From positions 1 through 38,191 of the IMG/VR virus record IMGVR_UViG_2778261450_000003: DNA of 38,191 bases. The stretch is one strand, 5' to 3'. Numbering within the stretch: the stretch's first letter is position 1; every line of letters begins with the position of its first letter. This document shows, in pieces, positions 11,717 through 30,957 of the stretch. The notes beneath the pieces were generated by a model, which made no database searches, was not told where the DNA came from, and saw only the letters and a list, made by a program, of their open reading frames with translations. The stretch comes from a virus. Lineage: Duplodnaviria; Heunggongvirae; Uroviricota; Caudoviricetes. The translations under genes were made by a program, and so were the position numbers.

Positions 11717-13802
11717 GCAGCTCCATCCACTCGTTAAGACGGGCAGGGGATGGATCCTGCACATTGACGTTAACCACACGACGGGAGTTGTCGATGGTGG
11801 TCTGGTTTTCGCTGTTGTTCTGCATCTCTGCCGCAATGCCGCCCGGTCCCGCACTGATGGCTTTACCGCCGGTTAATACGGAGCCTTCGCCACTTCCTGT
11901 GCTTTCCGGTGTGTCGATATTGACGCCGGGGATCATGTTGAGCTTGCCTACAATCCAGCCCCATGAATCACTGAAGGACTGTTTCACCAGTTCCCAGAGG
12001 TTACTGAAAATGTTCAGGATGCCGCCGGCGATATCCTTCAGGGCGTCCAGAGGTGAATGCGTGGAAAAATAGTTAACCAGTGCATTCCAGCCGTCCTGAA
12101 TTGTGTTCCATGCATTGCTGAACCATGCCCCCATACTGCCGACCATTTCAGCCACCCACTGAAAGGCGGCGGTATCCATCAGCGCGGCTTTAATCTCATC
12201 CCAGCGGGTGATCAGGAAATAAATGCCCACGCCCAGCGCAGCCAGTGCCAGGATGATTAATGTGATGGGGCTGAAAAGTAACTGTGTTGCAATTGCAGCT
12301 CCGCTGGTGACTGCGGTGTAGATTTTCATTGCTATGCCGGCGGCACCCAGCGCAACAGAATAAAGCCAGAGTCCGGCGCGCTGTAATTTCAGCAGCGCCA
12401 GCTGAATTTTTGCTTTGACGTTGTATGTTCCCATAGCAATGGACATGGCCAGATACAGCGCCCTGACCGTTCGGGCAACTACAGTGAACGCCCACATGGT
12501 AGCCGTCAGTGTGCGTTTCAGCAGAATGAGGATCTTCAGCGGCGCAACGGCTGCCAGCCAGACCAGCCGCAGTCCTGTCCAGACAAACTTCGCCACACCC
12601 ACCATAATGTTGACAACGGCACCCACTGCGGCAATGCCCAGCAGGGCGGCAGACAGTAAACCAATGGCCCGTGTGATATTGGGATACAGACGTAGCCAGG
12701 TAACAAAGGATTTACCGCCTTCGTTGCTTTTCTGGATAAACGGGTACAGAACAGGCAGCAACTGCGTGCCGATTTCGATGCGAATGCCGTTAATAATTGC
12801 GGCGGCCTGTTCCCATGGATCAGCCATGGCCTGCGCCATTTCGACAGCCTTATCCATACCTTTGATATTGCCCAGCGTGGCGATATTCTTTTCAAGTCCG
12901 CCAATGTCCGCATTGAGTAATTTAATCATGGCCACAGCTTCATCGGAGCCAAAGGCGCTTTTCAGCAAATCGGAATCAGCCACTTTTGACAGATCACCAA
13001 ATTTACCCCTGATAAGTTTCATGATCTCGACAACACTTTTCATCGTGCCGTCTTTATTCACGAAATTAAGCCCCAGCTTTTTCTGGGCGCTGCCTACTGC
13101 GGCAAGAAATGCCTTGTATTTTGTCCCGGCTTCGCTGCCACTCATGGTTGCCTGCAGTTGTCCCAGCACGGCGAACTGTTCAGCCGCATCAATACCGGCC
13201 GCTTTTGCACTGGCACCCAGCGTGGTGAACGCTGCTGACATGTTATCGCCGGTTGTTTTAAACATTTGCACGGCGGTGGCGGTTTGCCCGGCGACCTGCT
13301 CCACCCATTTGCTTTTTCCCATGGCATCAGCCTGGTCTTTAAAGATGCCGTACATGGTGCCCATGTAGGCGGTAATGGTCTGGCTGCTGGATTTGGTTGC
13401 TGCTGCCACCGTTGCTGATGCGGTGGTGAAGCGGGACAGCTCATCGTCAGTTAACCCGGCAATGGCTGACTGGATGTCGTAAGAAGCACGCACAAAATCC
13501 TGCGCAGCCCCGCCGTATTCCATAGTGAAATCAACGGCGGCGCGGCTGAGTTTACGCAATCCGGACTCTGCGACGCCCAGTGATTTCACCTCACCGAGCG
13601 CCCTGTCCATTTCAATGGCTGGCATCAGTGCCCCCTGAATGGCTGCTCCCACTCCCCAGAGCGCAGCGCCTCCGGTAGCAATGTCCCGAAAGGCTCCCCG
13701 ACTTGTTGCAGCAAATCCCTGAACCTGTCGCCCGGCTGCACGCAACGGCCTTGTCAGGCGGTCTGTCAGTTCAAGAAGTAATTCAAGGCGCTGTTGTGAC
13801 AT
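11706..13802 (-). CDS. tail tape measure protein
   Basis: 698-aa ORF, Ala/Gly-rich with several hydrophobic segments, directly downstream of the chaperone frameshift pair; largest gene in the tail module. Confidence 0.8.
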   Translation of the reverse strand: MSQQRLELLLELTDRLTRPLRAAGRQVQGFAATSRGAFRDIATGGAALWGVGAAIQGALMPAIEMDRALGEVKSLGVAESGLRKLSRAAVDFTMEYGGAAQDFVRASYDIQSAIAGLTDDELSRFTTASATVAAATKSSSQTITAYMGTMYGIFKDQADAMGKSKWVEQVAGQTATAVQMFKTTGDNMSAAFTTLGASAKAAGIDAAEQFAVLGQLQATMSGSEAGTKYKAFLAAVGSAQKKLGLNFVNKDGTMKSVVEIMKLIRGKFGDLSKVADSDLLKSAFGSDEAVAMIKLLNADIGGLEKNIATLGNIKGMDKAVEMAQAMADPWEQAAAIINGIRIEIGTQLLPVLYPFIQKSNEGGKSFVTWLRLYPNITRAIGLLSAALLGIAAVGAVVNIMVGVAKFVWTGLRLVWLAAVAPLKILILLKRTLTATMWAFTVVARTVRALYLAMSIAMGTYNVKAKIQLALLKLQRAGLWLYSVALGAAGIAMKIYTAVTSGAAIATQLLFSPITLIILALAALGVGIYFLITRWDEIKAALMDTAAFQWVAEMVGSMGAWFSNAWNTIQDGWNALVNYFSTHSPLDALKDIAGGILNIFSNLWELVKQSFSDSWGWIVGKLNMIPGVNIDTPESTGSGEGSVLTGGKAISAGPGGIAAEMQNNSENQTTIDNSRRVVNVNVQDPSPARLNEWMELHAY

Positions 13803-14283
13803 TACGATCCCTTAAAAGCACGGATAATGCCGTTATTGACGGCGATGCTCATATTTTCCCAGTAGTGGTTATCCAGCCAGACGGCGGCAGCCAGTGACTG
13901 CGGCGAGTCATCCTCGCCGGGCAGCCAGTGGCGGCGCAGAATCAGCATCCGGGTAAGGTCATTGCGATCAATGGCCCCCAGATGGCTTTTTATTTTTTTA
14001 CGGTGATTTCCACTTCCGGCACAAACTCGTTATTCACGGCTGTTGCCAGGCTGGCCGGCATTCCTGGTTTTTCCAGCAACTGGTTCAGCAGATCGCGGTG
14101 CTCTTTAATCACGATACGGCGCAGGTAGTTTTTCAGCGGCGCGATTTTGTTATCCGGCATGAAGTCGTTCTGCAGGTCGTTGTAGGCTTTTACGGTCGGG
14201 ATAAACGTCAGTTCATGCTCGCCGACCTGTAAAGTGATGGTGTTCTCTGCGGTAGTCTGGGTGTTTTTATCGTTCATCATCAT
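13802..14283 (-). CDS. tail assembly chaperone -1 frameshift fusion product (E+E'-like)
   Basis: A -1 slip on the A7 run gives a 62-codon stop-free extension (IKSHLGAIDRNDLTRMLILRRHWLPGEDDSPQSLAAAVWLDNHYWENMSIAVNNGIIRAFKGS) whose TAA overlaps the tape-measure ATG (TAATG). Confidence 0.55.
13990..14283 (-). CDS. tail assembly chaperone (P2 gpE / lambda gpG analogue)
   Basis: 97-aa ORF between lysis genes and tape measure, ending ...VKK-stop on an A7 run. Confidence 0.6.
   Translation of the reverse strand: MMMNDKNTQTTAENTITLQVGEHELTFIPTVKAYNDLQNDFMPDNKIAPLKNYLRRIVIKEHRDLLNQLLEKPGMPASLATAVNNEFVPEVEITVKK
13993..13999 (-). other. candidate -1 programmed ribosomal frameshift slippery site (A AAA AAA)
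   Basis: Heptanucleotide A-run at the end of the chaperone ORF; the downstream -1 frame is open as far as the tape-measure start. Confidence 0.5.
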
Positions 14284-14347
14284 TTCCTTTTAAAGTCAAG
14301 AATAAGAGGGCTTAATAAGCCTGCAGGAAGGCTTATTAAGCGTAAAA

Positions 14348-14689
14348 TCAGCGCACGCCGTCGTGCTCAAGGCTGAAATGATTGCCATCCGGGCGGTTTT
14401 TAAAACGACCGCCCCATGCGCCACCAAGGGATTCCCAGTACTCGCCCAGCTCGCGGTAGGCCTCTGTGCGGGTCTGATATTCACCGTTAATAAACAGATT
14501 AAAATCCACGGCCAGCCGCTGGCAGTGCAGGCTGTTGGCAATGCCGGCTCCCTTTTGTGCGTTGAGTTTTGCCTGTTCTGGCGTGCGGTACGCCTCACCG
14601 AACGTCAGGCCATAACCGCGCTGATGGGCAAACTGGATGAGTTTTCCGATCATGACGGTAAATTGTTGTTGCTTATCGGAGAGTTTCAT
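14348..14689 (-). CDS. endolysin, peptidase M15-like (D-Ala-D-Ala carboxypeptidase/VanY-type fold)
   Basis: 113-aa ORF with AAGGAG RBS; motifs SLHCQRLAVD and DGNHFSLEH resemble M15 metal-binding H-x6-D and H-x-H signatures; adjacent to a holin-like gene. Confidence 0.6.
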   Translation of the reverse strand: MKLSDKQQQFTVMIGKLIQFAHQRGYGLTFGEAYRTPEQAKLNAQKGAGIANSLHCQRLAVDFNLFINGEYQTRTEAYRELGEYWESLGGAWGGRFKNRPDGNHFSLEHDGVR

Positions 14690-14793
14690 TTTTGCTCCTT
14701 ATGAGGTTGCTGAGGTTTGCGCAGCCAGTACCACAGTGCCCGGATAATTTTCCAGGCAATGGCGGCAGCTTTTTGTTCCCTGCGGGACAGCAT
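14686..14793 (-). CDS. small basic protein (35 aa) between holin and endolysin
   Basis: ORF MLSRREQKAAAIAWKIIRALWYWLRKPQQPHKEQK with AGAGGAG RBS; its TGA overlaps the endolysin ATG (ATGA); below the ORF-track cutoff. Confidence 0.35.
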   Translation of the reverse strand: MLSRREQKAAAIAWKIIRALWYWLRKPQQPHKEQK

Positions 14794-14798
14794 TGCTG

Positions 14799-15095
14799 TT
14801 ACTCCTCTTTGTTCTCTTTCTCGCCCAGCTTCCGGCGCATATGACGCAGGAAGATTTCAACAATCTGGTAACCGGCAACGCCCATTGCGGTGCCTGCGCC
14901 GGCAATGGCCAGTGGGTCAAGGTTCGGGTAGCGAACCAGCAGGGCAGCGGCAGAAACACCCAGCGCGCTCCCCAGCAGGGTTCGGCCCACAAACAACCGC
15001 AACGTAATCGGCTCTGCGCCAGCCAGCACCCGACTTGCGGCAGCGATTCCGCCCAGAATGCCCAGGGTGATAATGGTGCGCTCATGCTCCTGCAT
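14799..15095 (-). CDS. holin-like membrane protein
   Basis: 98-aa ORF with GGGGTGA RBS, three predicted hydrophobic helices and a highly charged C-terminus (RRKLGEKENKEE); next to the M15-type endolysin. Confidence 0.5.
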   Translation of the reverse strand: MQEHERTIITLGILGGIAAASRVLAGAEPITLRLFVGRTLLGSALGVSAAALLVRYPNLDPLAIAGAGTAMGVAGYQIVEIFLRHMRRKLGEKENKEE

Positions 15096-15098
15096 GGT

Positions 15099-15554
15099 TC
15101 ACCCCATCAGTCCGCGCACGTCGTTCTCTGAGAGAACGGGCACGCCGTTGATACGCACAAAGTCAGGGCTTGCCACCACGTACTTGATTTTGTGCGTGGT
15201 CAGATCTGCGCTCTCGGTGTCAATGCTTAACAGGCCGGAAAGCATCAGCTCACAACCGAAGGCTTCAACGCGGATTTCTTCGGTGCCCGTATTGGCGTAA
15301 AACACAAAATCCATTGGCGGCAGGTCACGCCACGATCCCGCCTGAGCAGCCACTTCCCCGAGCTGGTTAAAGCTGCGGGTACTCATTTCGATTTCACCTT
15401 CGGCACTGACAGGACCACGCAGTTTGCCGTCAGGGATGCCACGGGTTTTGGCAACGGCGCTTTCATCGCTGATGTCCAGTGAGATGCTTTTCACATGGAT
15501 ATCCGTTCCACCGATAAAAGTGTCAAACGCCATGCCATTAATGCGGGTCGTCAT
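15099..15554 (-). CDS. tail tube protein
   Basis: 151-aa ORF whose ATG overlaps the sheath stop (ATGA); size and position typical of contractile-tail tube proteins. Confidence 0.6.
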   Translation of the reverse strand: MTTRINGMAFDTFIGGTDIHVKSISLDISDESAVAKTRGIPDGKLRGPVSAEGEIEMSTRSFNQLGEVAAQAGSWRDLPPMDFVFYANTGTEEIRVEAFGCELMLSGLLSIDTESADLTTHKIKYVVASPDFVRINGVPVLSENDVRGLMG

Positions 15555-16699
15555 GCGTTTTCCTCCAGAGATTTATCCAGCTGAATGCCCACTTTGATGG
15601 TTTTGGGGCAGGCGTAAGGGCGGACAACAATGCTGATGCTGACCGTCTTTTCGTCCTGCCAGGTGATGGCCACATCGCCTTTTTGTGGCGATTTCACTTC
15701 GCCCGGAAAGGTGACACCGTTAATCTGCGTGGATTTCGCCATGGTACGCAGCGGGCGGGCAAACAGCGTTTCATGTGCGGCAATGCTGCCCGGTGTGCTG
15801 TTCAGTGAGCGATCGGCAATTTTGGGGATGGCCATCAGCCGTACGCGGCGCGCCACCTTATCAGCAATGCGGACATGTTCGATGACGTTGTAGTCCCCGC
15901 CTTCCACCTCAAGTGTCACGCCGTCGGCCCAGTAAAGGCCGTCATAGTCGGCATACCACATGGGCACGCTGTAGCGGGCGGTTGCCAGCGCCTGCAGGGT
16001 GGCGAGATCAATTGCCTGTCCCGCGCTGTCCTTCGGGCGCTCTGTGGTTTTCAGTGCGGACAGCGCCCCGGTTGCCACACGTGCCGGACTGTCAGCAATG
16101 GTGACGGCGCTGTTACACAGGCGACCAGCAAGAACACCCGGTTCAAATCCAAAAATCTCCGGAACCAGCATGACCTGCGGGGCTGCAATGCCTTTCTGTA
16201 GTGCGGTCAGTTCGGCAACGTATTCCGCCCAGGTTTTGCTGTTGTTGTTGGCGGCGATGGTCAGGATGAACCAGATGCGGCGCTGATATTTATTGATGAT
16301 GGTCTGACGTAACGCCTGTATGGCGTTGATATCATCCTTCGTGCTGACCGGTTCGGTGATCACCACGCCTTCAACTGAAACAGTTTCCTGAGCCGCCAGT
16401 ACGGCGTTCTGCCATGCCTGGCAGGCTGGCGTCGCTTCTTTGCCCCTGCCTGCTTCCGGCAGAACGGCAACATAGAAAAAGGCATTCTGTCCGGCATTGG
16501 TCAGTGCTGACTGAAGGAAATTCTTCAGCGGGCTGGCGTTCGTTCCCAGCAATTCATCCAGATTACTGTTGGCATTGACCGGCAGAACCTTACCTTTGTT
16601 GTTTTGTGCATTGCCCACAAACAGCAGTGTATTTTCCACGCCGTCCGGTGAACTGCTGAATGTGTTGTACTGTTCAATCGTGACAGATGGCCATGTCAT
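15551..16699 (-). CDS. tail sheath protein
   Basis: 382 aa from the ATG at 16699 (AGGAGA RBS); the track's upstream extension lacks an RBS; size and position before the tube gene. Confidence 0.7.
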   Translation of the reverse strand: MTWPSVTIEQYNTFSSSPDGVENTLLFVGNAQNNKGKVLPVNANSNLDELLGTNASPLKNFLQSALTNAGQNAFFYVAVLPEAGRGKEATPACQAWQNAVLAAQETVSVEGVVITEPVSTKDDINAIQALRQTIINKYQRRIWFILTIAANNNSKTWAEYVAELTALQKGIAAPQVMLVPEIFGFEPGVLAGRLCNSAVTIADSPARVATGALSALKTTERPKDSAGQAIDLATLQALATARYSVPMWYADYDGLYWADGVTLEVEGGDYNVIEHVRIADKVARRVRLMAIPKIADRSLNSTPGSIAAHETLFARPLRTMAKSTQINGVTFPGEVKSPQKGDVAITWQDEKTVSISIVVRPYACPKTIKVGIQLDKSLEENA

Positions 16700-16718
16700 G
16701 GTTTGTCTCCTGATTTTG

Positions 16719-17441
16719 TTATCTCGTGCCGCCGTAATGCAGGCTGCGCAGCTGCGCTTCCAGAATGCGGGTAAACTCTTCGCCGCTGGCACCGAGGAAT
16801 GCCCTGGCCGGAATGGTGATTTCCCAGGTGTTCCTTGCTTCTTTTCCTTTAAGGATGTTGATCACCGTACCTGCCTGTAGTCTGCTCATGTTTTCCATAA
16901 TCCATTTCAGGGATGGTTTCCGGTAATTTCTGCGGCCAGTTTTTTTGTTGACCGCTCCGGTTGGGGCGCGGAACCCCAGCGAAAGTAAGCGGTGAGCCTG
17001 CCGTCGCGTGGCTGGTTGTTCGCGCATGGTTTCCATTACGCCGGCACTCCACTTTCTGTTTCCTCTGTGGGTGATACGGGCTCCATTCTGCTGTATCTGA
17101 GCAACTGCCCCTGCGTGTGTGCGGGTGGCGTAATCCCCTCTTTTGAAATAGATGCGAACCGTTTTGCCGTTATTGTCAGCTCTGATGGCCATCAGTTTCG
17201 GCAGTCCCAGCAGCATTTTGTTTTTATGCCTGCCGCTGGCTTTATCCGGCCTTTTTCGTGGTGCCCATGCGGCCCCTTCCGGCGTTCGCTGTGATTTCAC
17301 ATTGCGCTTTGCTGCGGGGATCAAACCGTATTTCGCAATACGAACCAGCAGTTTTCTGGCCTTCGCCGGTGATAACTCAGCTTCGTTAATGGCGCGCAGC
17401 ACATCCCTGAGATGTGGCTGATTAAGGTTAAAATGAATCAT
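16719..17441 (-). CDS. phage virion morphogenesis / tail completion protein (gpS-like)
   Basis: 240 aa from the ATG at 17441, overlapping the upstream stop (ATGA); basic protein between R-like and sheath genes. Confidence 0.5.
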   Translation of the reverse strand: MIHFNLNQPHLRDVLRAINEAELSPAKARKLLVRIAKYGLIPAAKRNVKSQRTPEGAAWAPRKRPDKASGRHKNKMLLGLPKLMAIRADNNGKTVRIYFKRGDYATRTHAGAVAQIQQNGARITHRGNRKWSAGVMETMREQPATRRQAHRLLSLGFRAPTGAVNKKTGRRNYRKPSLKWIMENMSRLQAGTVINILKGKEARNTWEITIPARAFLGASGEEFTRILEAQLRSLHYGGTR

Positions 17442-21354: not shown

Positions 21355-23142
21355 ATGGCGTACTCTGATGAAGTGATTGCTGCAGCAAAATCACTCTATC
21401 TGAAAAGGCACACCCCAAAAGAAATACAAAAGAAGCTCGGACTGAACAGCCCGCGAATTGTTTATTACTGGGCGACAAAGTTTGAGTGGTACACACAGCT
21501 TAATACTGAGGGCGTGGAGGATGTCATCGCCCGGCGTCTCGCTGTACTGGCGGAGCGTGACCATAAAACCCAGGAAGAGCACGATGAACTCGATCGCCTG
21601 ATTGGCCACCACGTCAAACTGATGTCGGTCAGGAACAAGCACACAGAACGAATGGCCGAGATAGAACGAATGGGGGCTGATATTCCCCGGTCTGGCCGTT
21701 ATGGAAAAGAAGAGCGCGGAGAAAAAGACGCGGATAAGAAAGAGCGTCGTCGTAAAGCTAATGATGTGTCAGGGCTGACAGCAGAGAGTTTTGAGCCGTT
21801 TACCAAAAAACTGTTCGCTTATCAGTTGCATCTGCGTGAAAACAAATTCCGTCGTGTACGCAACCTGCTTAAATCGCGCCAGATTGGGGCGACGTATTAC
21901 TTCGCGTTTGAGGCGTTCGAAGATGCGGTATTAACCGGCGACACACAGATATTTTTATCGGCATCAAAACGTCAGGCCGAAGTGTTCCGCACCTATATCG
22001 TTAAGATTGCACAGACGGAATTTGGCATTCCCATTAAAGGCAACCCGGTTAAGTTAAGTAATCTGGCTGAACTGTATTTTCTGGCGACCAACAGTAACAC
22101 GGCGCAGTCAAACAGCGGCCACCTGTACATTGACGAATATCTGTGGATCCCCGGCTTTCGTCGCCTCAATGAAGTGGCGTCCGGTATGGCCACCCACTCG
22201 CACTGGCGCATTACCTACTTCTCCACGCCGTCAACCAAAACCCATCAGGGCTATCCGTTCTGGTCTGGCGATGAATGGCGCAAAGGCGATCCGAAACGAA
22301 AAGGGGTTGAGTTTCCGTCCTTTGATGAGCTGCGCGATGGCGGGCGCGAATGCCCGGATGGCCAGTGGCGCTATGTGGTGACAATGGAAGATGCCATTGC
22401 CGGCGGCTTTAACCTTGCTGACATCAACGAACTGCGCGAGCGGTACAACGAAACAGCCTTCAATATGCTGTTTATGTGCGTGTTTGTGGATGACAAAGAG
22501 AGCGTCTTTAAATTCGATGACCTCGTGCGCTGTGGCGTTGATATCAGTACGTGGGAGGATTTTCACCCGGAAGATGCCATGCCATTTGGAAACCGTGAAG
22601 TGTGGGGCGGCTTTGACCCTGCGCGCTCCGGCGATAACGCCACGTTTGTGGTGCTGGCACCACCGCTGGTTGCGGCAGAACGATTCCGCGTGCTGGAAAA
22701 ACACCACTGGCGGAGTATGTCATTCCAGTTTATGGCAGAGCGTATCCGCAGCATTAAGGCGCGCTATAACATGACGTTTATCGGCATTGATGTTACCGGG
22801 CTTGGCTATGGTGTCTTTGAGCTGGTTCAGGGATTTGCCCGCCGTGAAACAGTGGCCATTCATTACAGTGTTGAATCCAAAAACCGCCTGGTGATGAAGA
22901 TGCTGGATCTGATTTACGCCAACCGTATTGAGTGGGATGAGGAAGCCACAGATATTCCGGCATCATTTCTGGCCATCCGTCAGGAATCCACCAACAGTGG
23001 CAATAAAGTTACTTTTACCGCTGAACGTAGCGAAGAAACCGGGCACGCTGACATCTTCTTTGCCATCGCCCATGCAGCAAGTAACGAACCCCTGAACTAT
23101 AAGCACAAGCGCAAATCAACATGGATCCTGCCAGATGAGTAA
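21355..23142 (+). CDS. terminase large (ATPase) subunit, P2 gpP-like
   Basis: 595-aa ORF divergent from the capsid operon and overlapping the portal gene start. Confidence 0.8.
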   Translation: MAYSDEVIAAAKSLYLKRHTPKEIQKKLGLNSPRIVYYWATKFEWYTQLNTEGVEDVIARRLAVLAERDHKTQEEHDELDRLIGHHVKLMSVRNKHTERMAEIERMGADIPRSGRYGKEERGEKDADKKERRRKANDVSGLTAESFEPFTKKLFAYQLHLRENKFRRVRNLLKSRQIGATYYFAFEAFEDAVLTGDTQIFLSASKRQAEVFRTYIVKIAQTEFGIPIKGNPVKLSNLAELYFLATNSNTAQSNSGHLYIDEYLWIPGFRRLNEVASGMATHSHWRITYFSTPSTKTHQGYPFWSGDEWRKGDPKRKGVEFPSFDELRDGGRECPDGQWRYVVTMEDAIAGGFNLADINELRERYNETAFNMLFMCVFVDDKESVFKFDDLVRCGVDISTWEDFHPEDAMPFGNREVWGGFDPARSGDNATFVVLAPPLVAAERFRVLEKHHWRSMSFQFMAERIRSIKARYNMTFIGIDVTGLGYGVFELVQGFARRETVAIHYSVESKNRLVMKMLDLIYANRIEWDEEATDIPASFLAIRQESTNSGNKVTFTAERSEETGHADIFFAIAHAASNEPLNYKHKRKSTWILPDE

Positions 23143-24169
23143 AAAGAAGAAATATTCTGTGACACACGATGCCGGAGCAAAAAAAACGGCCGGCAAAATG
23201 ACGTTTATTGAATTTGGTGACCCCGAACCGGTTGCTGCATGGGGCTGTTATTACGGCTCGCTGTGGGATGGTTATAACGGCTGGTACACGCCGCCCATTG
23301 AGCGCATGGATCTCGCCATGTTGTCCAATATCGCGCCGTATCACGGCGCAGTATTGCGTGCGCGCGTCAATATGATTATGCAGGGTTTTCGGGGCGGTGG
23401 GGGTATGACACACGCCGCCATGGCGGCAGCAGTGACCAATCTGCTGATATTCGGGGATATGGGGCTGCTTAAAGTACGTAACGGCTTCGGTCGGGTGGTG
23501 CGTCTGCATACGTTGCCTTCTCTGTATCTGCGGCGTAACAACGAGGGAGGCACGGTGATTGTGCAGGCGGCACTGGAAGATCTCGTGTATCCGCCAGGCG
23601 AAGTGGTGTTCGTGGCCATTTATGACCCGCAACAGCAGGTTTACGGTGTCCCGGATTATATCCACGGGATGGAATCCGCCATGCTGAATGTGGATGCCAC
23701 CCGCTTTCGCCGCAAGTATTACAAGAACGGCGCACACCTCGGTTATATCCTGTATTCCACTGACCCGGATATGACTCCCGAGCTCGAGGCGGAATTCCGT
23801 AAAAAGATAGAGGGGTCAAAAGGGGCGGGCAATTTTAAATCCATGTTCATCAATATACCGGGCGGAGACAAAGAAGGGGTTAAGGTGATTCCTATCGGGG
23901 ATTCAGGTACAAAAGATGAGTTCCTGAATATAAAAACCATCAGTGCTCAGGATCAGCTCGTGGCGCACCGTTTTCCACCCGGACTTGCCGGCATCATTCC
24001 CGCAAATACGGCCGGGCTTGGCGACCCACTTAAATCCCGCGAGGCATATTACAGGGATGAGGTTATTCCGATGCGCCGTCTGATTATGGAGGGGATCAAC
24101 AGTGACCCGGATATCAGGCGACTGGGGGAGGTGAAATTTATTCTTGAATTTAACGAATCCACGGAGTGA
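23135..24169 (+). CDS. portal (capsid vertex) protein, P2 gpQ-like
   Basis: 344-aa ORF, the length of P2 gpQ; overlaps the terminase 3' end by 8 nt. Confidence 0.8.
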   Translation: MSKKKKYSVTHDAGAKKTAGKMTFIEFGDPEPVAAWGCYYGSLWDGYNGWYTPPIERMDLAMLSNIAPYHGAVLRARVNMIMQGFRGGGGMTHAAMAAAVTNLLIFGDMGLLKVRNGFGRVVRLHTLPSLYLRRNNEGGTVIVQAALEDLVYPPGEVVFVAIYDPQQQVYGVPDYIHGMESAMLNVDATRFRRKYYKNGAHLGYILYSTDPDMTPELEAEFRKKIEGSKGAGNFKSMFINIPGGDKEGVKVIPIGDSGTKDEFLNIKTISAQDQLVAHRFPPGLAGIIPANTAGLGDPLKSREAYYRDEVIPMRRLIMEGINSDPDIRRLGEVKFILEFNESTE

Positions 24170-25737: not shown

Positions 25738-26052
25738 TTATTCTGGAAAAAACGCCTGAATATTCTTTTTCACCTGCTGCATAGGGTGGGCGCTGGCTGT
25801 TGCTGGTTGCGCCTGTTTTTCAGGCTGCACTGGCAGCGATGTCATCCGTATTTCGTCTTCTGACCATTCTGCCAGCGAATACGCCAGTGCGGGGGCACGT
25901 TTTATGAGTGCCAGTCCAGCCAGAAAGGCCGCGCGTTGTGCGCGGCTGCGTTCCGAGGCTGGCAGGCTGTCGAGGTAATTGCACGCCTCCTGTTCACTCT
26001 TGACGGCGGCTGGCTTCAGATAGAAACTTATCCGTCTGGTTGGTGACGTCAT
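25738..26052 (-). CDS. parR: ParR/StbB-like centromere-binding partition protein
   Basis: 104 aa from the ATG at 26052 with AAGGAG RBS, 4 nt after the parM stop; DSLPASERSRAQRAAFLAGLAL closely resembles the R1 ParR region DSIPQGERSRLNRAALTAGLAL (from memory). Confidence 0.7.
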   Translation of the reverse strand: MTSPTRRISFYLKPAAVKSEQEACNYLDSLPASERSRAQRAAFLAGLALIKRAPALAYSLAEWSEDEIRMTSLPVQPEKQAQPATASAHPMQQVKKNIQAFFPE

Positions 26053-26056
26053 TGGT

Positions 26057-27016
26057 TTACTCCTTGTCCATTGCGTACAGCCCATTAACCAGAGCAAACT
26101 GTGGCACCCCGTCCGCGATGAAAGTCGCATTAACTCCGCAGGCTTCGCGGATAGCGGGTGCCACAATATCAGCCCCTCCACCGACAACCATCACCCGTCC
26201 GTACCCCGAAAAACCAGCCAGCGCACGGATCACACGTTGTTTCAGTGTTTCTTCCTTTTCATGAATAACCGCCATCAGGTTGGCGTAATGCGCGTCATTG
26301 TGAATGTGCTGGCGCAGCCAGGCTTCATCGTGGCGATGTTCGATAATGGTATTGGCGATGTGGTGACTGGTGCGCATACCGTTAGTGGCCATCACCGACA
26401 GTACAGCATCGGCCATCAGAGAAACGCCTACGTGTGGATCGCAAAACACCTGGCTGATACCTGCCAGTTGTCCCTGAACCTTTGCCACATCCAGCGTGGT
26501 TCCGCCTAAATCAACAATAAGCAGGGATTCAAACGGACTCATGTCAGCCAGCGCCTTAAAGCCTGCCGGAATGGATTCAGGCATAACCCGCACGTTACGG
26601 ATAGTGAATGCTTTGCCGTTCTGGTACTCCACCGGGCGCATGACGTTCGCTTTTTTTCGGTTGATGTTTGCCATGTCCGGCTGTGCGTTTGTGTCGAAAT
26701 ATTCGCTCAGTGGCAGGGTGACAACCACATCCACTTCCTGTGGCGTGATGCCTGATTTGACCAGTGCGTGATGAATGGCAATGACATTCACATCACTGTA
26801 CTGGTATTGCGTGTCGGTCGTCTGGACAAAGCGATCGCTGACCGGATCAAAACCATAGCGCACGCTATCAAGCATGTAGTTCGCGGGCTGCATGCCACCG
26901 AACGGCGCAGACCATTCCGACTTGAAGCTGTTCGGGCTGATGGCGTTGCGGCGTTCGCTGTTCTCAGTCCATGCCAGCTTGATGTTGGTTGAGCCGTCGT
27001 CGATGTAAATTTTCAT
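26057..27016 (-). CDS. parM: ParM/StbA actin-like plasmid segregation ATPase
   Basis: 319-aa ORF with AAGGAA RBS; N-terminus MKIYIDDGSTNIKLAW...ISPNSFK...YQYSDVNVIAIHHAL matches remembered R1 ParM (MLVFIDDGSTNIKLQW...ISPNSFK...WQYSDVNVVAVHHAL). Confidence 0.85.
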   Translation of the reverse strand: MKIYIDDGSTNIKLAWTENSERRNAISPNSFKSEWSAPFGGMQPANYMLDSVRYGFDPVSDRFVQTTDTQYQYSDVNVIAIHHALVKSGITPQEVDVVVTLPLSEYFDTNAQPDMANINRKKANVMRPVEYQNGKAFTIRNVRVMPESIPAGFKALADMSPFESLLIVDLGGTTLDVAKVQGQLAGISQVFCDPHVGVSLMADAVLSVMATNGMRTSHHIANTIIEHRHDEAWLRQHIHNDAHYANLMAVIHEKEETLKQRVIRALAGFSGYGRVMVVGGGADIVAPAIREACGVNATFIADGVPQFALVNGLYAMDKE

Positions 27017-30590: not shown

Positions 30591-30957
30591 GATATGTGGC
30601 CTCTTGTAGTAAGTTGTGAAAACTCACCATCCAGAGCTGCGAAACTGTGGGTGGCGAGACGTACGAGGTTCGCAGTACCGGCTACAAGAGATCCCGGCCC
30701 GACCGAAGTCGGCCCCGTACGCCCCGCCATAATTCTGACGCGAAAAAAACGTGGCAATACAGTACACACAAAAAAACCGCTGGCGCGGTTGTGCGCTCTT
30801 GTAGTCAGCAGGCTGCGAAACCCGGCACCCGTTTTATGAGGTGCAGCGAAAATGTAACCTGACTGATTGCGGCATGGCAAGCGGTTTTTTTGTGAGAACG
30901 GCATACTAAAAAATCCTGATACTGCTCCGGCCAGCGGTTTGCACTGGCCGGGTGTCA

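Follow-up and report, generated by a model that had tools for sequence, protein, structure and literature searches.

A candidate disruptin-like peptide gene in the spanin-less lysis cassette of an HP1-type prophage of Escherichia coli

How might a phage of a Gram-negative host complete lysis when its lysis cassette holds a holin, an endolysin and no recognisable spanin? The question is raised by IMG/VR virus record IMGVR_UViG_2778261450_000003, the whole 38,191 nucleotides (nt) of which we refer to as the window, and which is an HP1-type (Peduoviridae) temperate myovirus prophage integrated in Escherichia coli. On its minus strand an open reading frame (ORF) of 35 codons lies between the holin and the endolysin gene. 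By analogy with gp28 of coliphage phiKT, and because the ORF occurs only in spanin-less cassettes and the predicted peptide has the physical traits of cationic, amphipathic, membrane-active peptides, we favour the reading that it is a disruptin-like outer-membrane disruptor standing in for a spanin; we give this about an even chance. Over the cassette, E. coli SC418 is 99.6% identical to the window, and the prophage is carried by 42 of 5,426 complete E. coli genomes and by E. albertii too.

Two layouts of the lysis cassette

With the holin as the entry point, loci were gathered from IMG/VR, E. coli genomes and phage records. The genes for the holin, the M15 endolysin and the chaperone were then located in each, and the layouts were compared among the 69 loci having all three. 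These loci split into two exclusive layouts. In the spanin-bearing layout, seen at 41 loci, the holin gene runs 4-14 nt into the endolysin gene, and 428-491 nt lie between endolysin and chaperone. The window-type layout (28 loci) has a holin-to-endolysin gap of 106-118 nt that contains the small ORF, and the distance from endolysin to chaperone is 64-93 nt. The small ORF and spanins are found together in none of the 69 loci, and no locus has neither. The ORFs that precede the chaperone gene in the spanin-bearing layout match the Rz-like spanin family phrog_1152 (E 1e-28 to 4e-38), and in 32 of the 41 loci an overlapping ORF has an outer-membrane spanin (o-spanin) C-terminal motif; the lipobox follows the consensus LSGC, LSAC or MSGC in 31 of these 32 and reads TSGC in Salmonella phage SI7. 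In HP1-type spanin cassettes, therefore, the holin gene overlaps the endolysin gene and is followed by genes for an Rz-like inner-membrane spanin (i-spanin) and an o-spanin lipoprotein, whereas the window has a 64-nt hairpin spacer in place of the spanin segment and a 35-codon gene between holin and endolysin. As judged from these sequences, a sub-lineage probably lost its two-component spanin (Rz-like i-spanin plus lipoprotein o-spanin), with a short hairpin left in its place, and gained a small gene between holin and endolysin.

The hairpin sits exactly where relatives carry spanin genes. It has the longest stem (13 pairs) and is the first-listed terminator-like site in the late region from 11.5 to 19.5 kb, with a fold z-score of -3.55. 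All spanin-less lineages retain it: 96% of cells are paired across them, and 4 of the 13 pairs show compensatory changes. It occurs once in the window, and the phage collection contains no match to it. The hairpin may weaken transcription that continues into the chaperone and tape-measure genes, or it may have a stabilising effect on the mRNA upstream of it.

An earlier note on this DNA had described a holin, a small ORF and an M15 endolysin between the tube and chaperone genes, and all three ORFs are indeed present there on the minus strand (Table 1). The note had also implied, by comparison with P2, that this position is anomalous; P2 proved to be the wrong yardstick. The order on the minus strand is sheath, tube, holin, 35-codon ORF, M15 endolysin, 64-nt spacer, chaperone, DUF6890 ORF and tape measure, so that the upstream tube gene anchors the cassette within the late tail operon. 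Haemophilus phage HP1 has the order tail sheath, orf24, hol, lys, Rz-like orf25, orf26 and orf27, and in SI7 (Irrigatiovirus) and Yersinia phage vB_YenM_324 (YenM324) the order is tube, holin, endolysin, spanin(s) and chaperone. Because HP1, SI7 and YenM324 have the same order, placement of lysis genes between tube and chaperone is the norm of the group, and an unusual position of the cassette is rejected. The likeness in position of the sheath, tube, holin, endolysin, chaperone and tape-measure genes extends to Cronobacter phage ESSI-2, and SI7 and YenM324 share the holin family and the M15 endolysin with the window at 75-79% amino-acid identity. In the window the head-completion gene adjoins the tail-completion gene, and the P2-style slot between them holds no lysis genes.

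The earlier note had further stated that no Rz/Rz1-like pair is recognisable, and this held for the cassette as well as for the rest of the prophage. A two-component spanin was taken to consist of an i-spanin, which crosses the membrane near its N-terminus and forms a coiled coil in the periplasm, and an o-spanin with a lipoprotein signal and a lipobox cysteine, usually encoded by overlapping or embedded genes; a unimolecular spanin was taken to be a single protein with a lipobox at its N-terminus and a membrane span at its C-terminus. When about 40 Rz-like proteins of relatives and HP1 orf25 were compared with the 38-kb window by tblastn, the best match for an Rz-like spanin had an E of 0.086. 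A scan for lipoprotein signals from every start codon in the six frames of the window gave a sole match at 23015-23167, antisense to the terminase/portal genes, and PHROG scans of 20 further window proteins and five embedded or antisense cassette ORFs returned no lysis family. After the endolysin gene, where HP1-type phages have their Rz-like gene, there are only 64 nt before the chaperone gene. For a unimolecular spanin of the T1 gp11 type, the window has no credible lipobox ORF, and the 35-residue peptide has no cysteine. The check for embedded spanin frames that the note had proposed was run: the alternative-frame ORFs of 128 residues (14699-15085) and 100 residues (14296-14598) and three antisense ORFs in the cassette matched no family and were rejected as spanins. 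The sequence LPTAC in the 100-residue ORF was considered as a lipobox and rejected as a lipoprotein signal because the N-terminus before it is charged and non-hydrophobic.

When species-representative genomes were scanned with the holin profile, only five loci came up, in E. albertii (window layout) and Acinetobacter (unrelated cassettes), and a first, wider alignment was too divergent to be usable. Other cassettes with a PF04550 holin (L032, L062 and similar) combine it with a lysozyme and spanins and are uninformative on the peptide. The Acinetobacter loci L034-L037 add further cassettes that have a PF04550 holin and no spanins: their holins belong to the same family (40-42% identity), the endolysin that comes next is of the lysozyme type, and downstream of it no spanin pair is obvious.

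The small ORF and its predicted peptide

Is the 35-codon ORF a gene at all? Its TGA overlaps the ATG of the endolysin gene as ATGA (14686-14689), and the ORF, with an ATG or GTG start, is found in 28 of the 28 spanin-less loci plus three more contexts. Across the loci there are 13 protein variants of 27-41 residues with net charges of +6 to +10, and searches of protein collections yielded further ones. At least 1000 contigs encode a peptide identical to that of the window, in some records as a 'hypothetical protein'. Four diverged lineages can be distinguished, represented by the window type (MLSRREQKAAAIAWKIIRALWYWLRKPQQPHKEQK), L097 (MKLTDRQQKRAAIAWKILRTLWRWLCKPQKTSKDKNETL), E7-1N7 (MNTTDRQWRVIATLWRYGQALWRLWKKLRNSNRRE) and L031 (MTGKKASPGILSGMRQFAVKVWQLLRSLQKLRNSMNGKTRP). 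In the alignment of these four peptides W14, L20 and K26 are invariant, and KLRNS is common to E7-1N7 and L031. Every lineage has a properly spaced Shine-Dalgarno site (GGAGGA before GTG in L031, GAAGGA before ATG in L097), a start codon and a stop that overlaps the endolysin start, by 4, 14, 1 and 4 nt across lineages (14 nt in L097, 1 nt in L009). Identity to the window across the lineages falls from 93-94% to 73% for the flanking proteins and from 74% to about 25% for the peptide, and most indels in the ORF are in frame (-1, -3 and +3 codons).

Within the window lineage, the ratio of non-synonymous to synonymous divergence (pN/pS) of the small ORF is 0.11-0.41 in the most different pairs, and 12 of 26 single-site changes are synonymous (14 non-synonymous) where 21% would be expected (p 0.004); the same test in the other two frames gives 7 of 19 and 9 of 17. 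We consider the coding signal real but modest, as predicted for a short, composition-constrained peptide. On sequence grounds the ORF behaves as a real gene, the translation of which we infer. The segment 14686-14793 is a local divergence hotspot relative to the flanking genes (loci L022, L097, L098 and L009). Synonymous and non-synonymous differences in it are 2-3 times those of the adjacent holin and endolysin genes, with a synonymous divergence (pS) in L022 of 0.41 vs 0.12-0.16.

Pfam, PHROG and NCBIfam contain no family for the peptide. Among 1.84 billion representatives, a profile search recovered nothing but members from the same context and spurious repeat proteins. Rfam finds no known RNA family in the cassette. 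A programmed frameshift that would fuse the peptide to the endolysin as a permeabilising N-terminus was rejected: overlap and frame vary (4, 1 and 14 nt), and there is no conserved slippery site.

The window peptide is Trp-rich, has a net charge of +7 and contains no cysteine, signal peptide or membrane-spanning segment (Kyte-Doolittle maximum 1.06). AlphaFold2, run with a 16-sequence alignment, predicts a single helix for residues 4-25, with a mean predicted local distance difference test score (pLDDT) of 75 overall and 89 for residues 11-20, and leaves the Pro/Gln-rich tail unstructured. On a helical wheel of residues 9-26 the side chains separate into two arcs, of which one is hydrophobic (I12, W23, I16, A9, L20, A13, L24, I17, A10, W21 and W14) and the other cationic (R25, R18, Y22, K15, K26 and K8). 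Maximal hydrophobic moments (muH) are 0.61-0.69 in three lineages (0.62 in the window), compared with 0.68 for gp28 and 0.89 for LL-37. Among 27 distinct full-length alleles of the window lineage, all have net charges of +6 to +10, and the aliphatic positions show aliphatic swaps only, save A10S in one allele. Variation is greatest at Y22, a polar-face residue (Y, H or R, and C in one allele). Cationic amphipathic antimicrobial peptides include human LL-37 and Trp/Arg-rich peptides, and the Trp of the window peptide lies at the polar/apolar interface as it does in such peptides. LL-37 is similar in length (37 vs 35 residues), charge (+6 vs +7) and helical amphipathicity; in contrast to it, the window peptide is phage-encoded, would act from inside the cell and is predicted to be less amphipathic (muH 0.62 vs 0.89).

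The two partner proteins are assigned with matches far above chance. The holin scores 97.7 bits in Pfam against a gathering cutoff of 25, has hydrophobic segments (Kyte-Doolittle maximum 1.75 at residues 8-26) and ends in a charged C-terminal tail, RHMRRKLGEKENKEE. It is 28% identical to the phiKT holin gp29 over 86 residues (pairwise E 1e-11). For the endolysin, assignment to M15 was judged by a Pfam M15_4 score above gathering and by the zinc-ligand motifs SxHxxxxAxD plus a C-terminal His. It scores 43.7 bits (cutoff 25), also matches the endolysin family phrog_465, and its residues S53-L-H55...A60-V-D62 and H104-F-S-L-E-H108 align with the L-alanyl-D-glutamate endopeptidase 8q2g_A, although weakly (E 0.14). 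We conclude that it is a predicted cytoplasmic peptidoglycan hydrolase of the M15 (LAS) type. It has neither a signal nor a signal-arrest-release segment (Kyte-Doolittle maximum 0.7), and since an N-terminal hydrophobic segment is missing it should depend on the holin. Nucleotide similarity to SI7- and ESSI-2-type phages (about 75%; about 73-75% for SI7 and YenM324) is confined almost exactly to the endolysin ORF, which makes the cassette a mosaic with a shared endolysin at its core.

Candidate function and competing explanations

Gram-negative-host phages without a recognisable spanin have been put at about 15% (bioRxiv 10.1101/515445) and 13% (PMC12819732). The latter paper, from 2026, regards disruptins as difficult to predict and treats their presence in spanin-less phages as an open question. 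The precedent is phiKT gp28, the 'disruptin' (bioRxiv 10.1101/515445, Holt et al.; cited as Holt et al. 2022 in PMC12819732), a protein of 56 residues with a charge of +7, a predicted amphipathic helix and no localisation signal; lambda spanin mutants are complemented by it, and in its behaviour it resembles LL-37 (bioRxiv 10.1101/515445). Our literature searches gave no description of the 35-residue peptide, and in the papers they returned phiKT gp28 is the sole spanin alternative cited. With fewer than 80 residues, a cationic composition, a predicted amphipathic helix and neither signal nor membrane span, the window peptide has the traits of a disruptin, and it is encoded in a lysis cassette without a spanin in a phage of a Gram-negative host.

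The likeness to gp28 is one of size class, charge (+7 each), predicted amphipathic helix and lack of a signal sequence or membrane span. In both cases the gene lies directly between holin and endolysin in a phage without spanins, and the partner PF04550 holins are homologous. The differences are equally clear. There is no detectable sequence relationship, gp28 matches phrog_35982 and the window peptide does not, and gp28 has 56 residues compared with a Trp/Arg-rich single helix of 35 here, the function of which is proposed by analogy. The phiKT map runs endolysin gp27, gp28, holin gp29, whereas the order here is holin, peptide, endolysin, and phiKT is a virulent podovirus, the window a temperate HP1-type myovirus. 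The marks of the disruptin class are complementation of a lambda Rz/Rz1 defect, association with membranes and antibacterial action of the synthetic peptide. Because the class is defined by function, missing homology to gp28 does not exclude the peptide from it, though it places the peptide outside the gp28 sequence family. With spanins such as lambda Rz/Rz1 and T1 gp11 the peptide would share the presumed last (third) step of Gram-negative lysis and the same cassette. Spanins, however, have to be anchored in the inner membrane and, through a lipoprotein, in the outer membrane, and they act by membrane fusion, whereas the peptide has no cysteine, lipobox or membrane span and is too short for the periplasm.

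Starting from what is observed, namely gene identities, synteny, the absence of spanins, a conserved ORF and the physical traits of its predicted product, we propose the following sequence of events. The PF04550 holin would build up in the inner membrane and then trigger, and the signal-less M15 endolysin would escape through the holin holes and cut the peptidoglycan. The co-translated 35-residue peptide would also be released and reach the periplasm, where its helix (residues 4-25), with one face of Ile, Leu, Ala and Trp and another of Lys and Arg, would bind the outer membrane at its phospholipid inner leaflet and disrupt it. The peptide would thus perform the role of the missing spanin, as the unrelated 56-residue gp28 does in coliphage phiKT. 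With slightly less confidence than an even chance, the peptide may represent a second, sequence-unrelated disruptin family, in which a minimal single-helix Trp/Arg peptide alone replaces a two-component spanin; the locus would then show a clean natural module swap, spanin genes for a peptide gene and a hairpin, in a holin-endolysin cassette of otherwise unchanged synteny.

Several observations weigh against an outer-membrane disruptor. The tube protein is at least 83% identical to that of the window in spanin-less loci vs 44-55% in spanin-bearing loci with an M15 endolysin; because the spanin-less loci form one clade, the perfect anticorrelation with spanins represents one evolutionary event and not 28 independent ones. 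About 4% of shuffled sequences per lineage exceed the observed hydrophobic moment (p ~0.04), so the amphipathicity is only moderately significant. The variable sites show no third-position excess (7/9/10, p 0.76), peptide identity declines 3-4 times faster than that of the neighbours, for which partly relaxed constraint is possible, and two single-copy frameshift alleles exist. Two early-stop alleles, which trim only the C-terminal tail, exist as well, and the truncated allele of 33 residues is found on 182 contigs. In a tblastn comparison of the peptide with 50,697 phage records there was no match, and the ORF is present in no cultured phage of that collection. Since there is no sequence similarity to gp28 (hhalign probability 0.2%), the link to it is by analogy only, and we infer, from the traits described, translation of the peptide, its action on the outer membrane and its sufficiency for that step.

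Could the peptide instead act on the timing of lysis? The earlier note had suggested a lysis regulator, and a holin or endolysin modulator is a possible but rather unlikely alternative: a cytoplasmic antiholin-like factor acting on the holin tail or inner membrane, or a cofactor of the endolysin, in a prophage that has no outer-membrane step and in which shear or turgor bursts the weakened envelope. The position of the ORF between holin and endolysin, its translational coupling to the latter and the lack of an export signal, by which the peptide starts in the cytoplasm beside the charged C-terminal tail of the holin, all agree with such a role, and the spanin anticorrelation, as a single event, could be coincidental linkage. 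Antiholins and accessory factors include dual-start products, the P2 LysA type, the LambdaSo Lcc6 type and soluble holin-domain binders of the T4 RIII type; the peptide, which lacks a membrane span and does not resemble the holin, can be none of the membrane-spanning types, but a soluble binder is compatible with its sequence. The 65-residue Lcc6 of LambdaSo is a precedent for small factors at the level of the holin (bioRxiv 10.1101/2024.01.23.576932), but Lcc6-type and classical antiholins span the membrane and the peptide does not. None of the 41 spanin-bearing relatives, whose holins and endolysins are homologous, has a gene at this position, where their holin and endolysin genes overlap; therefore the holin-endolysin pair does not need such a factor. 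Moreover, charge, amphipathicity and Trp are conserved rather than a specific interaction surface, a pattern typical of lipid-directed peptides. The regulator proposed by the note is thus possible and yet not the best reading, given the restriction of the ORF to spanin-less cassettes and its cationic amphipathic character.

It is improbable that the outer membrane is opened by a factor that went unrecognised, be it a non-canonical spanin or another protein encoded in the window, or spanins that further prophages of the host provide in trans. Several window proteins match only PHROGs of 'unknown function', but they are encoded in the early/regulatory region or between tail genes, outside the lysis cassette, and on the coding strand of every gene block there is no lipobox ORF, with the Rz-like search of the 38 kb ending at the E value given above. 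E. coli genomes usually carry lambdoid prophages with Rz/Rz1, which counts for supply in trans, but the spanins of unrelated, repressed prophages would not be expected to be expressed when this prophage is induced. More improbable still is that the 35-codon frame is incidental and non-functional, and that the 109-nt stretch is a spacer carrying the ribosome-binding site of the endolysin gene and perhaps an RNA structure. RefSeq/PGAP leaves the ORF unannotated in the genomes inspected, the region folds somewhat better than shuffles (z -2.5), and the endolysin Shine-Dalgarno site constrains the C-terminal codons; the missing codon-position bias of the variable sites points the same way. Yet the ORF and its own Shine-Dalgarno site are kept in four lineages although the spacer DNA has diverged far beyond its flanks (peptides 24-34% identical). 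Its indels are mostly in frame and the synonymous excess is found in this frame only. Charge, Trp content and amphipathic pattern are conserved, and the spanin-bearing relatives need no spacer.

Neighbouring features and implications

The gene set of the prophage comprises integrase, Cox, replication and P2-type capsid, portal and terminase genes, and its tail is HP1-type; the features discussed here are listed in Table 1.

Table 1. Features of the window, with positions counted from its first nucleotide
Feature	Positions	Strand	Evidence or remark
Candidate disruptin-like outer-membrane disruptor, 35-residue ORF, MLSRREQKAAAIAWKIIRALWYWLRKPQQPHKEQK	14686-14793	minus	comparative conservation, predicted helix
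Shine-Dalgarno GAGGAG of the small ORF	14802-14807	minus	inside last holin codons, 8 nt before ATG
Holin, 98 residues, Phage holin family 2	14799-15095	minus	PF04550 Phage_holin_3_2, E 5.5e-28; phrog_175, 1.2e-32
Endolysin, M15-family (LAS-type) metallopeptidase, 113 residues	14348-14689	minus	PF13539 Peptidase_M15_4, E 4.1e-11; phrog_1768, 9.5e-15
Shine-Dalgarno AAGGAG of the endolysin	14695-14700	minus	read from sequence; inside C-terminal codons of the small ORF
Perfect 13-bp hairpin (GCUUAAUAAGCCU / AGGCUUAUUAAGC), then U-rich tract CCUCUUAUUCUU	14310-14341	minus	within 64-nt spacer 14284-14347
Tail tube/tail protein, HP1 Orf24 family	15099-15554	minus	PF10772, E 1.1e-50; phrog_1182, 1.1e-65
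Tail sheath	15551-16792	minus	DUF2586
Tail assembly chaperone, Phage_TAC_10	13990-14283	minus	PF10963, E 1.6e-26
End of chaperone gene, ACC GUA AAA AAA UAA	13990-14001	minus
DUF6890 frame	13802-14031	minus	open in -1 from about 14031
ParM-type segregation ATPase and partition protein	25738-27016	minus
C4 antisense RNA (81 bits) and isrK Hfq-binding RNA (67 bits)	30647-30734, 30770-30844	minus	Rfam, above gathering score
Regulator-like ORF, 224 residues	30284-30958

The chaperone gene ends in a run of A, and the DUF6890 frame is open in -1 across this end. DUF6890 is therefore most likely a frameshift extension of the chaperone and not a separate gene, although the RefSeq annotation gives it as a separate coding sequence of 48 residues. 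The sequence A AAA AAA suggests a -1 programmed frameshift that would give a chaperone-DUF6890 fusion, analogous to E/E' of P2 and G/GT of lambda. The C4 and isrK matches lie in the early/regulatory region, inside or beside the 224-residue regulator-like ORF. The ParM-type ATPase and partition protein are encoded inside an integrated P2/HP1-type prophage, which hints at a plasmid-prophage ancestry or an alternative lifestyle.

What singled the candidate out was a comparison of cassette layouts, not a noisy screen for size and charge: close relatives that share its holin and endolysin have spanins and no peptide, and the window lineage has the peptide and no spanin. The host is E. coli, in which complementation of lambda Rz/Rz1 is a routine test. 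If the peptide is not a disruptor, the cassette is a lysis module of the usual HP1 type plus one small gene that still needs an explanation. If it is, it would be a very small phage lysis protein and a natural antimicrobial-type Trp/Arg peptide with dozens of alleles, and it would supply a search rule for others of its kind, namely a small coupled ORF in a cassette that has lost its spanin slot.

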